64,000 bases of DNA, taken from assembly GCF_054482595.1 (NCBI RefSeq), contig NZ_CM137008.1; one strand, written 5' to 3'. The stretch's first letter is position 1. Every line of letters starts with the position of its first letter. The position numbers and the translations under genes were made by a program. The notes beneath the pieces are model-generated. The model had not been told where the DNA came from. It made no database searches and worked only from the letters and a program-made list of their open reading frames with translations. Of this stretch, positions 1,844 to 2,173 are shown in pieces.

Positions 1844-2173
1844 TCACCGCCCATACTCATCTTCCATTCTCCGCTCTTCATCCTCCAGTTGCCGACGCTC
1901 CTGATCAAGCTGACGTTGGCGATCGTCCAGCTGCCTGCGGCGATCTTCAAACTGGCGGCGGCGGTCGTCATATTGTCTGCGCCGATCGTCGCTCACTTCA
2001 CGCTGCCAGCCGTCGTCGCGCGAATCTTCATAATCTCGCCCACGGTCAGGGTTATAAGCATCGTTAATCGCCTGCTGAATATTGCCAATGGTGTCGTCGA
2101 TAATATCGGCCTGGGCCGGTACGGTGGTCAGCGTGAGCAGGGTGAAAAAAAAGAGCGTGGAGTGGCGTTTCAT
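1844..2173 (-). CDS. yjdP: Small secreted protein with DDRRRQ-type heptad repeats
   Basis: 109 aa ORF with N-terminal signal peptide (MKRHSTLFFFTLLTLTTVPAQA) and repeated RRRQxDD units; position next to phnP as in K-12. Confidence 0.8.
   Translation of the reverse strand: MKRHSTLFFFTLLTLTTVPAQADIIDDTIGNIQQAINDAYNPDRGRDYEDSRDDGWQREVSDDRRRQYDDRRRQFEDRRRQLDDRQRQLDQERRQLEDEERRMEDEYGR

Follow-up and report, generated by a model that had tools for sequence, protein, structure and literature searches.

Charged single alpha-helix (SAH, or ER/K motif) segments are known, for example, in myosin VI, myosin X and caldesmon. The LTxxQ-family proteins Spy, CpxP and ZraP are small, helical and charged and carry a signal peptide, and the RcsB-activated promoters of rprA, osmC, bdm and osmB combine a near-consensus RcsB box, centred at about -42/-43, with the lack of a -35 element. 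Here we compare with these systems an allele of the E. coli gene yjdP, in a window of 64,000 nucleotides (contig NZ_CM137008.1 of assembly GCF_054482595.1; positions are counted from the first nucleotide of the window). The encoded protein belongs to the YjdP family, with the same full-length model match, the same place beside phnP and a mature sequence identical to that of K-12 YjdP; the protein differs from its K-12 counterpart in the leader only (MKRHSTLFFF here, MKRFPLFLLF in K-12), while the 5' UTR and promoter spacer of the gene also differ and its linkage is to an OI-167-type cluster instead of rpiB/als. Like Spy, CpxP and ZraP, it is small, charged and predicted to be helical, has a signal peptide and is induced in the same LolCDE-inhibitor experiment, but it is built of repeats and has no LTxxQ motif or known chaperone activity; a Pfam scan at E ≤ 1 gave no LTxxQ-domain hit.

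The gene is an open reading frame with an ATG start, 109 codons and a stop (ORF list and translation), and it contains exactly the repeat string RRRQYDDRRRQFEDRRRQLDDRQRQLDQERRQLEDEERR to which an earlier note had drawn attention. That note had also named the gene yjdP, and correctly so: the DNA is 100% identical in E. coli XH990, where PGAP names the identical sequence yjdP, and the product matches NCBIfam NF041443, 'DDRRRQL repeat protein YjdP', over its full length (profile positions 1-101 of 101, ORF residues 1-103; E = 5e-44, 148.6 bits where the cutoff is 90). A precomputed match to Pfam PF28054 (YjdP) is recorded for close homologues; a Pfam scan of the ORF itself with a model set that excludes PF28054 returned only sub-threshold noise (DUF7900, E = 0.039), and a PDB sequence search nothing meaningful. 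There are 474 YjdP homologues, with only 49 representatives at E ≤ 1e-3 among 1.84 billion, and all named family members are from Enterobacteriaceae. In Escherichia, Shigella, Citrobacter and a few other Enterobacteriaceae yjdP belongs to the conserved core genes, and it is already catalogued; the family name itself records the repeat, so this is not a new gene. The repeats that led the earlier note to call the protein unusual are real, but the NF041443 name and PF28054 show that they had not been overlooked, and re-describing them adds little because they already stand in the official product name. Among E. coli papers that mention yjdP we found no experimental study of the protein, and searches under b4487, DDRRRQL or O157 locus tags yielded nothing relevant. 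The features discussed below are collected in Table 1.

Table 1. Features of the yjdP locus, with window positions, strand and the evidence behind each.
Feature	Position	Strand	Evidence
yjdP coding sequence, 109 codons + stop	1844..2173	-	ORF translation, NF041443, PGAP annotation in XH990
Predicted Sec signal peptide MKRHSTLFFFTLLTLTTVPAQA, codons 1-22, cleavage after AQA	2108..2173	-	heuristic n/h/c-region reading
Similarity collapse to the K-12 allele, codons 4-8	2152..2164	-	K-12 comparison
Residues 23-40 DIIDDTIGNIQQAINDAY, predicted short amphipathic helix, highly conserved among close relatives	2054..2107	-	invariant columns, AlphaFold2 pLDDT about 53
Acidic linker NPDRGRDYEDSRDDGW, residues 41-56, predicted disordered	2006..2053	-	low pLDDT, net charge -3
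Seven heptads, residues 57-105, one long predicted helix	1859..2005	-	period-7 statistics, TRF array, AlphaFold2, charge pairs
Shine-Dalgarno GAGG, 8 nt before ATG	2182..2185	-	read from sequence
Predicted -10 hexamer TACCTT (TAnnnT)	2202..2207	-	conserved offset from box
Short terminator-like hairpin AGGCACCTTTGCCT, between box and -10	2207..2220	-	pattern scan: 5-bp stem, weak T tail
Conserved operator-like box TGAGAATCCTCCTC	2231..2244, core 2228-2245	-	10 sequences, 7 genera
G/C-rich inverted repeats, CCCTCTCCC/GGGAGAGGG type, between convergent phnP and yjdP	1722..1823		inverted repeats I1-I5

The C-terminal half of YjdP consists of about seven heptads of the form (D/E)RRRQx(D/E), which read in rows of seven from residue 57 as QREVSDD, RRRQYDD, RRRQFED, RRRQLDD, RQRQLDQ, ERRQLED and EERRMED. 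Self-identity of the protein is 52% at an offset of 7 and at most 29% at offsets that are not multiples of 7, and the count of offset-7 identities (25 of 42) was matched by none of 20,000 composition-preserving shuffles. On the DNA, Tandem Repeats Finder (TRF) reports a 21-bp tandem array of 3.5 copies at 1918-1990. The mature protein is 55% charged, with 20 Arg and Lys and 28 Asp and Glu residues. Repeat number, which the earlier note had proposed to compare among strains, does vary, in 7-residue steps: relatives encode proteins of 95, 102, 109, 116 and 123 amino acids, a heptad copy-number polymorphism. Whole 21-bp units are gained or lost within the array, giving natural alleles with about 5 to 9 heptads.

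The tandem array, and the long mechanical ORF that also runs along the opposite strand (1823..2347), could be taken to mean that the ORF is not a real gene and its repeats a by-product of a 21-bp DNA repeat. We give this next to no credence because the frame, leader, cleavage site and C-terminus are kept down to 40% identity in other genera, every length change is an in-frame multiple of 7 residues, the Shine-Dalgarno sequence and promoter are conserved, and the gene has curated family models and RNA-seq expression; conservation has effectively refuted the by-product explanation already.

Downstream of its start, the protein reads as the earlier note had described it, a signal-peptide leader (by heuristic reading) followed by charged heptad repeats (by the period-7 statistics above). 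Read by hand, the N-terminus divides into MKRH / STLFFFTLLTLTTV / PAQA↓D, that is, a basic n-region, a hydrophobic core and an A-x-A site. Among 17 other YjdP family members checked, 16 have AxA↓(D/N) at this place (A-Q/H/L/R-A), despite differing leaders, the single exception being P0009 with T-Q-A↓D. The leader sequence has no twin-arginine motif, and YjdP is not a lipoprotein because its sequence contains no Cys. From this hand-read leader we infer export via Sec with an SPase I type of cleavage, with DIIDD as the predicted first residues of the mature protein; our literature search found no proteomic or localisation report on the cleavage or periplasmic location of YjdP.

AlphaFold2 predicts one long helix for the precursor (residues 53-108, pLDDT 87-97). 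For the mature form it predicts a low-confidence helix at residues 2-18, a linker and a helix at residues 33-86 (pLDDT 84-96), with no secondary structure at mature residues 19-32 (pLDDT < 50 at 21-30) and without placing the N-terminal helix confidently against the long one (pTM 0.42). A Foldseek search of the model against the PDB found no match, which is what one would expect of a long helix on its own. In the N-terminal segment, D23, I24, D26, I29, G30, N31, I32, Q33, A35, D38 and A39 are invariant among close relatives, whereas in distant relatives only A35 is invariant within residues 23-40, with the motif still recognisable.

Charge in the repeat region is arranged in a strongly non-random manner, with 34 opposite-charge pairs at i+3/i+4 compared with 21.1 ± 3.4 in shuffles (a number reached by 5 of 20,000) and 4 like-charge pairs compared with 19.8 ± 3.4 (none of 20,000 as low). 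Each heptad also has a single hydrophobic residue (Y, F, L or M), forming a narrow stripe weaker than a coiled-coil core, and a recurrent Gln. On the predicted model, the repeat region resembles a charged single alpha-helix in its i+3/i+4 charge pattern, and the heptads would make up a single, highly charged helix of roughly 55 residues (about 8 nm) with nearly all i+3/i+4 pairs opposite. Shared with SAHs are the long predicted helix, the very high charge density, the alternating acidic and basic blocks, and the dense i to i+3/i+4 salt bridges with almost no like-charge clashes. Unlike SAHs, YjdP uses Asp/Arg and not Glu/Lys, keeps a strict heptad with a conserved hydrophobic residue and Gln, and is a bacterial, predicted periplasmic protein without sequence homology to them. 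AlphaFold2 draws confident long helices for coiled coils too, and a periodic hydrophobic residue is atypical for single alpha-helices; these observations count against a single alpha-helix, as does the fact that Asp favours helix formation less than Glu does.

The earlier note had suggested a disordered or coiled-coil protein. An alternative interpretation is indeed that the repeats are a coiled coil in which YjdP pairs with one or two further copies of itself, or with a partner, along the hydrophobic/Gln stripe to give an oligomeric periplasmic rod, as might be read from the strict 7-residue period, the Q-[LFYM] pair conserved in each heptad across the family, the long confident AlphaFold2 helix and a weak profile similarity to coiled-coil segments of FlbB, HlyD and RNase Y. 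We consider this improbable because only one of seven positions is hydrophobic, with an Arg 3 or 4 residues away in nearly every heptad, and because the charge layout maximises intrahelical i+3/i+4 salt bridges; with one hydrophobic position per heptad, where a canonical coiled coil has hydrophobic residues at a and d in most heptads, an a/d coiled coil is not supported. Another reading takes mature YjdP for a disordered polyampholyte, a stress-induced periplasmic protectant or ion buffer of hydrophilin/LEA-like character whose repeat number is neutral, consistent with its 55% charge and low complexity, the low pLDDT at residues 1-56, its co-induction with osmotic and desiccation genes and the freely variable copy number. 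This we regard as quite improbable, since the charges are ordered in a way that shuffling hardly ever reproduces (0-5 of 20,000 shuffles), the Q-L register is kept down to 40-50% identity and AlphaFold2 places a helix of pLDDT > 90 over the repeats; the glycine content of YjdP, 3.7%, is also lower than hydrophilin criteria usually demand. The description in the earlier note can be narrowed: the repeats are predicted to be a long helix (pLDDT 84-97) and not a canonical coiled coil.

Upstream of yjdP, the box lies at -71 to -73 from the ATG in 10 of the 10 sequences compared, at a position that stays constant although the neighbouring upstream gene is of five kinds. The box begins with the TGA that ends the upstream kinase gene (2242-2244). 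When the compared sequences were condensed into the pattern TTGRGAWTYMTCY, the box was its sole match in the 64-kb window, where 0.06 matches are expected. In all ten sequences a TAnnnT hexamer starts at a distance of exactly 37 nt from the first base of the box, the sequence between them being poorly conserved, and a purine-rich Shine-Dalgarno match is found at -11 to -13 in eight of the ten. Because a strict sigma-70 consensus scan found no promoter within 1650-2450, the proposed promoter rests on conservation and not on a consensus match. We suggest that yjdP has its own activator-type promoter, made of the box TGAGA-N4-TCC, no recognisable -35 and the TAnnnT -10; since the 37-nt offset to TAnnnT is fixed, the centre of the box would lie near -42.5, about 42-43 nt upstream of the putative transcription start, which is predicted near 2195, some 22 nt ahead of the ATG. 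The earlier note had placed the promoter within the 68 bp upstream of yjdP, which holds for the predicted -10 and the Shine-Dalgarno sequence but not for the box, which overlaps the kinase stop codon. The hairpin AGGCACCTTTGCCT, possibly the end of the kinase transcript to judge by its sequence, is specific to the present haplotype and missing from the K-12 and GNAT haplotypes. A 5'-UTR hairpin sequestering the Shine-Dalgarno sequence was also considered and rejected (consensus energy -0.61 kcal/mol, essentially no covariation), and an Rfam scan of 1500-2500 returned only chance-level miRNA and snoRNA matches (E > 0.5).

The box is most likely, from its sequence and placement, an RcsB site. 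The RcsB consensus is TN(G/A)GAN4TC(T/C)NA (PMC7913699), and the yjdP box matches seven of the eight specified positions; unlike consensus RcsB promoters, it has C and not A at the last position in every taxon. The two substitutions seen within the box are consensus-allowed alternatives: Entomohabitans has A>G at position 3, and Klebsiella sp. has C>T at position 12. The consensus match alone is without weight, because the full consensus has two matches elsewhere in the 64-kb window, as expected by chance. With the RcsB-activated promoters of rprA, osmC, bdm and osmB, the yjdP promoter shares a near-consensus box, its putative centre and the missing -35; the box has its left half, TTGAGA, in common with the crystallised rprA box (DNA fragment -33 to -53), and the box-to-hexamer geometry equals that of rprA.

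Published transcriptomes bear out expression of yjdP in K-12. A LolCDE inhibitor raises it 9.5-10.6-fold, in company with osmB, bdm, wca, rcsA, ivy and mliC; a block in lipoprotein sorting induces yjdP along with the Rcs regulon (PMC5105897). We caution against reading this induction as proof of Rcs control, because the response also includes Cpx, sigma-S and sigma-E genes such as cpxP, spy, degP, osmY and katE (PMC5105897). In a second data set, in which K-12 yjdP has 478-672 normalised reads, it is up 1.4-fold where osmB is up 1.8-fold and ivy 1.36-fold, a mild Rcs response; neither this rise nor the one with the LolCDE inhibitor is specific to Rcs. An iModulon study grouped yjdP with rpiB in 'Crp-2', which points to rpiB read-through as a second, Rcs-independent input in K-12, and on CsiR overproduction yjdP is down 3.5-fold, with CsiR binding and repression noted. 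The supplements of an early-antibiotic transcriptome paper have no yjdP entry, and among the papers searched none names yjdP as an Rcs target.

The 7/8 match to a degenerate consensus, the several regulons induced by the LolCDE inhibitor and the co-variation of yjdP with rpiB in K-12 would also suit a box that is another regulator's site or part of an unusual core promoter, with induction passing through sigma-S, Cpx or sigma-E. Transcription here might also come mainly by read-through from the same-strand kinase gene, whose end is separated from yjdP by only 68 bp and, at best, a weak hairpin. We consider these possibilities rather unlikely, although less so than those raised for the repeats, because the box-to-hexamer geometry is that of the RcsB-activated rprA promoter, and no CpxR or sigma-E pattern is seen by eye in the aligned region (consensuses GTAAA-N5-GTAAA for CpxR and GGAACTT-N16-TCTGA for sigma-E). 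Read-through, moreover, cannot explain the conservation in Buttiauxella, where the upstream gene is divergent, or in E. albertii, where it lies 549 bp away on the opposite strand.

The 68-bp gap upstream of yjdP had been taken for the left junction of an accessory island. This does not hold: the gap is likewise 68 bp where rpiB lies upstream, as in K-12, and where a GNAT acetyltransferase gene does, in a third haplotype, and the break in similarity lies inside yjdP. Identity to K-12 is 97% over codons 9-109, 15% over codons 4-8 and 100% over codons 1-3, then 40% from the start codons to the box and 84% within the box. The promoter spacer thus differs from that of K-12, as the earlier note had asked to be checked, but the box, the 37-nt spacing and the -10 are retained, and they are preserved in all three haplotypes (kinase, rpiB and GNAT). 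The N-terminal type of YjdP co-varies with the upstream gene, and a 74%-identical kinase also stands upstream of yjdP in Entomohabitans. To judge from this comparison, codons 4-8 are likely a recombination boundary of the variable region, and the als/rpiB genes of K-12 are replaced here by an OI-167-type kinase/mannose-lyxose cluster. With the boundary at codons 4-8, the start of the signal peptide, the 5' UTR and the promoter spacer would belong to the incoming haplotype, and the exchange would have preserved the box, spacing, -10, Shine-Dalgarno sequence and start codon of yjdP. On the other side of the gene, the spacer towards phnP is a dispersed repeat, an 801-bp query containing it matching a median of 6 places per E. 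coli genome, and is only 53% identical to K-12. A published hairpin/G-quadruplex element maps between yjdP and phnP in K-12 (PMC5100583).

Taken as a whole, we lean, by a modest degree, towards an explanation that combines a four-part precursor, an RcsB-type promoter, a periplasmic role in envelope damage and an exchange boundary inside yjdP. In it, the gene, its repeats, family membership, variation in copy number, conservation of the promoter layout and the place of the homology break are shown, and export, the type of helix, control by RcsB and the periplasmic role are inferred. The 109-residue precursor would comprise a signal peptide (1-22), an amphipathic helix (23-40), an acidic linker (41-56) and about seven heptads. 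Since the box is most likely an RcsB site, YjdP may be read as a periplasmic protein that is produced once envelope damage has been sensed by the Rcs phosphorelay, its rigid charged helix serving as a spacer or scaffold that bears the conserved N-terminal head in the periplasm. A bolder version, which we offer as a long shot, is that YjdP is a periplasmic single-alpha-helix 'ruler', induced directly by RcsB on envelope damage, whose rod of about 8 nm, adjustable in heptad steps of about 1 nm, sets the distance between the head and a partner or surface.

For the locus, these results mean that the boundary of the OI-167-type island at yjdP would be an allelic exchange ending inside signal-peptide codons, and that the yjdP operator contains the stop codon of whichever of the alternative genes lies upstream; this matters for comparing yjdP expression between K-12 and EHEC-type strains. 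With the conserved promoter design it is easy to test whether Rcs directly controls this uncharacterised envelope protein, and the natural heptad-number alleles are a ready-made length series of a predicted rigid charged helix. If the 'ruler' proved true, YjdP would newly join the Rcs regulon and provide a rare case of an SAH domain exported by bacteria.

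The gene next to phnP, yjdP, can be named with practical certainty; the window DNA is 100% identical to that of E. coli XH990, where the PGAP name is 'yjdP: DDRRRQL repeat protein YjdP', and the product matches the NCBIfam equivalog NF041443, named DDRRRQL repeat protein YjdP, at 148.6 bits (cutoff 90). Given that name and the precomputed Pfam match (PF28054, YjdP) on relatives, the repeat is already curated, RRRQxDD being the DDRRRQL unit read in another register; since YjdP as first described is thus a known, named family, that finding was already known, and a search of the literature found no study of the protein itself. 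The family is small: a word-indexed search gave 474 homologues, and HMMER, run exhaustively against 1.84 billion representatives, gave 49 matches at E ≤ 1e-3, a few of which are long, unrelated charged proteins. Named members come from Escherichia, Shigella, Citrobacter, a Klebsiella sp. MAG, Buttiauxella, Cronobacter dublinensis and Entomohabitans, and relatives of 40–60% identity keep one plan: a leader with AxA before D/N, a helix of the pattern D-x-L/I-D...Q-A-[IL]-N, an acidic segment and (D/E)[RQ]RRQL(D/E) heptads.

The earlier note's picture of a highly charged repeat protein with a signal-peptide-like leader is borne out. The N-terminus (MKRH, STLFFFTLLTLTTV, then PAQA before D) reads as a Sec signal peptide complete with its three regions and lacks a twin-arginine motif; export is very probable, and YjdP is not a lipoprotein because it has no cysteine. 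Charged residues make up 55% of the mature protein, and the repeat string quoted in that note is present exactly in the translation, where heptads run from residue 57 (QREVSDD RRRQYDD RRRQFED RRRQLDD RQRQLDQ ERRQLED EERRMED). Self-identity peaks at offsets of 7 (52%), 14 (42%) and 21 (39%), with other offsets at or below 29%, and not one of 20,000 composition-preserving shuffles reached the 25/42 offset-7 identities within the repeats. Repeat number varies among strains, a comparison the note had proposed: homologue lengths cluster at 95, 102, 109, 116 and 123 aa, that is in 7-aa steps, and alignments show whole heptads cleanly lost or duplicated, a drift that would proceed through unequal recombination. 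In E. coli the 109-aa form (K-12, window) and a 102-aa form are both widespread, one 102-aa sequence occurring on at least 1000 contigs. An unannotated antisense ORF (absent from the XH990 annotation) covers yjdP entirely, together with the promoter. Its product is Leu/Ile/Ala-rich, as the complement of Arg/Asp/Gln codons would be, and the ORF is most likely spurious.

Coordinates of features at the yjdP locus and in comparison loci
Feature	Locus	Position (strand)	Detail
yjdP ORF	window	1844..2173 (-)	109 codons, ATG start
21-bp tandem array (Tandem Repeats Finder)	window	1918-1990	beneath heptads
Conserved box	window	2244 down to 2231	TGAGAATCCTCCTC
TAnnnT hexamer	window	2207 down to 2202	TACCTT
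Predicted transcription start	window	near 2195	about 7 nt past hexamer
GAGG	window	2185-2182	
Hairpin	window	2207-2220 (-)	AGGCACCTTTGCCT then ACCTTGTATT
Kinase, mechanical ORF	window	2242-4680	GTG start at 4680, 812 aa
Kinase, PGAP start	window	4503	753 aa
Kinase TGA	window	2242-2244	
rpiB TGA	K-12 (L002)	3646-3648	
GNAT TGA	O145 (L012)	1323-1325	
GNAT TGA	OkiPb01695 (L013)	2623-2625	
GNAT pseudogene	O145 (L012)	1323-1526	N-terminally truncated
GNAT gene	OkiPb01695 (L013)	2623-3255	intact
Hybrid kinase	Entomohabitans teleogrylli (L010)	1085-2917	
phnO	O157:H7 (L003)	1906-2341	annotated frameshifted
Antisense ORF	window	1823-2347 (+)	174 aa
phnP-yjdP spacer	window	1722-1823	
Perfect RcsB-consensus matches	window	42528-42541, 56954-56967 (+)	

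The same note's 'disordered or coiled-coil' may be narrowed down. AlphaFold2 modelled the precursor as a helix at 53–108 (pLDDT 87–97), the remainder being of low confidence; a run with the mature sequence and a more diverse alignment gave a helix at residues 2–18 (pLDDT about 53), a linker at 19–32 without secondary structure (pLDDT <50 at 21–30) and a long helix at 33–86 (pLDDT 84–96). Its pTM of 0.42 indicates no confident packing, and neither Foldseek with the model nor a PDB sequence search found a PDB relative. Many opposite-charge and few like-charge pairs at i+3/i+4 are the mark of charged single alpha-helices (ER/K or SAH class), and the seven heptads hold 34 of the former (21.1 ± 3.4 shuffled; reached by 5 of 20,000) and 4 of the latter (19.8 ± 3.4; no shuffle this low). 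Each heptad has one hydrophobic position (Y, F, L, L, L, M), with Arg three or four residues off at the partner position, so a canonical a/d coiled coil is not supported. The rivals are a non-canonical coiled coil, in a protein whose conserved, narrow Q-[LFYM] stripe could make some contact, and a disordered polyampholyte protectant, in keeping with the high charge and set against the confidently modelled helix; we tentatively favour a single-helix rod over both, at slightly below even confidence.

Upstream, yjdP borders on an accessory cluster, an OI-167-type island that ends before yjcS; the gene nearest yjdP, on its strand, encodes a hybrid histidine kinase, followed by a divergent sugar ABC transporter and by lyxose/mannose isomerase, aldolase, kinase and response regulator genes. 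(The longer, mechanical kinase ORF would run into the beginning of the divergent transporter ORF.) K-12 has rpiB-alsR-alsBACEK at this place, and in a third E. coli arrangement (O145, OkiPb01695) the kinase is separated from yjdP by a GNAT acetyltransferase gene or its remnant; a junction of the kinase or GNAT type is present in about 411 of 5,426 complete E. coli genomes. Entomohabitans teleogrylli also has a hybrid kinase directly upstream of its yjdP (74% identical over 387 aa to that of the window), and the adjacency is therefore old and not confined to the E. coli island. The 68 bp before yjdP, taken as the left junction of the island, are not specific to it; the gap is 68 bp in all three arrangements, and similarity to K-12 collapses inside the gene: identity is 97% over codons 9–109, 15% over codons 4–8 and 100% over codons 1–3, then 40% up to the conserved box, 84% within it and 37% beyond. 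Leaders follow haplotype (MKRHSTLF(F/L)F with the kinase, MKRFPLFLLF with rpiB, MKPYSTLFLF with GNAT), and the GNAT-linked leader and 5′ UTR are E. albertii-like. We conclude from these alignments that the 'left junction' probably reflects allelic exchange with a crossover within the signal-peptide codons, not insertion into a K-12-like promoter.

A 130-nt upstream alignment from nine sources (window, O157, K-12, C. rodentium, E. albertii, Cronobacter, Buttiauxella, Entomohabitans and Klebsiella sp.), extended afterwards to 10 sequences with the GNAT haplotype, revealed one conserved block in otherwise diverged DNA, TTG(A/G)GA(A/T)T(C/T/A)(C/A)TC(C/T)NC, at -71 to -73 from the ATG. This box is kept whether rpiB, the kinase or GNAT lies upstream, and also in Cronobacter, where another gene lies upstream at 106 bp, in E. 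albertii, where yjcS is on the opposite strand at a distance of 549 bp, and in Buttiauxella, where the neighbour is a divergent transporter gene. It is the sole match in 64 kb to TTGRGAWTYMTCY (0.06 expected), a pattern derived from the compared sequences themselves. The TGA stop of the kinase, rpiB and GNAT genes makes up the first three bases of the box; since three unrelated genes end there with the same 68-bp gap, the variable region meets the operator at one and the same nucleotide each time. Exactly 37 nt from the first box base, 10/10 sequences have a TAnnnT hexamer, which holds the key -10 bases, A at position 2 and T at position 6. The predicted start would give a 22-nt leader with the GAGG and centre the box near -42.5. 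A short hairpin between box and -10, confined to the kinase-linked haplotype, could be a weak kinase terminator or affect the yjdP promoter.

The box agrees at 7 of 8 specified positions with the RcsB consensus TN(G/A)GAN4TC(T/C)NA (PMC7913699), and both substitutions seen within it are alternatives that this consensus permits; the full consensus has two perfect matches elsewhere in the window (1.98 expected by chance). The left half of the site crystallised from rprA, in a fragment spanning -33 to -53, equals that of the yjdP box. In published expression data, all from K-12, yjdP rises 9.5- and 10.6-fold on LolCDE inhibition, in a list mostly of Rcs targets (osmB, bdm, wca/wz, rcsA, yjbEFGH, ivy, mliC) that also has Cpx, sigma-E and sigma-S genes (PMC5105897). 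It is up 1.4-fold (p=1.7e-4) in a supplementary differential-expression table of an imipenem/KPC-plasmid study, whichever conditions that table compares, alongside osmB (1.8-fold), bdm (4.2-fold) and ivy (1.36-fold) (PMC6286996). Alternatively, the box serves a different regulator, or read-through transcription dominates: the Crp-2 iModulon lists yjdP together with rpiB (PMC6892915), which suggests some read-through from rpiB. CsiR overproduction lowers yjdP 3.5-fold, with an intragenic ChIP peak (PMC5217608). We hold direct control by RcsB to be an evenly balanced prospect.

Downstream, the spacer between the convergent phnP and yjdP is full of G/C-rich inverted repeats (CCCTCTCCC/GGGAGAGGG and CCCCTCGCCC/GGGTGAGGGG) and only 53% identical to that of K-12, to which a published hairpin/G-quadruplex element maps (PMC5100583); it is probably a bidirectional terminator. 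An 801-bp query including it had a median of 6 matching places per E. coli genome.

The papers searched gave no description of the box/-10 geometry, the operator-embedded stop codons or the intragenic exchange boundary; these are incremental, yet open the way to cheap, decisive experiments. YjdP would be a small exported protein with a conserved head helix, an acidic linker as tether and a rigid helix, salt-bridged and about 8 nm long, for which a spacer or scaffold role is speculative. It would be transcribed from its own activator-dependent promoter and, that promoter being most likely RcsB-dependent, may be read as part of the envelope-damage response.
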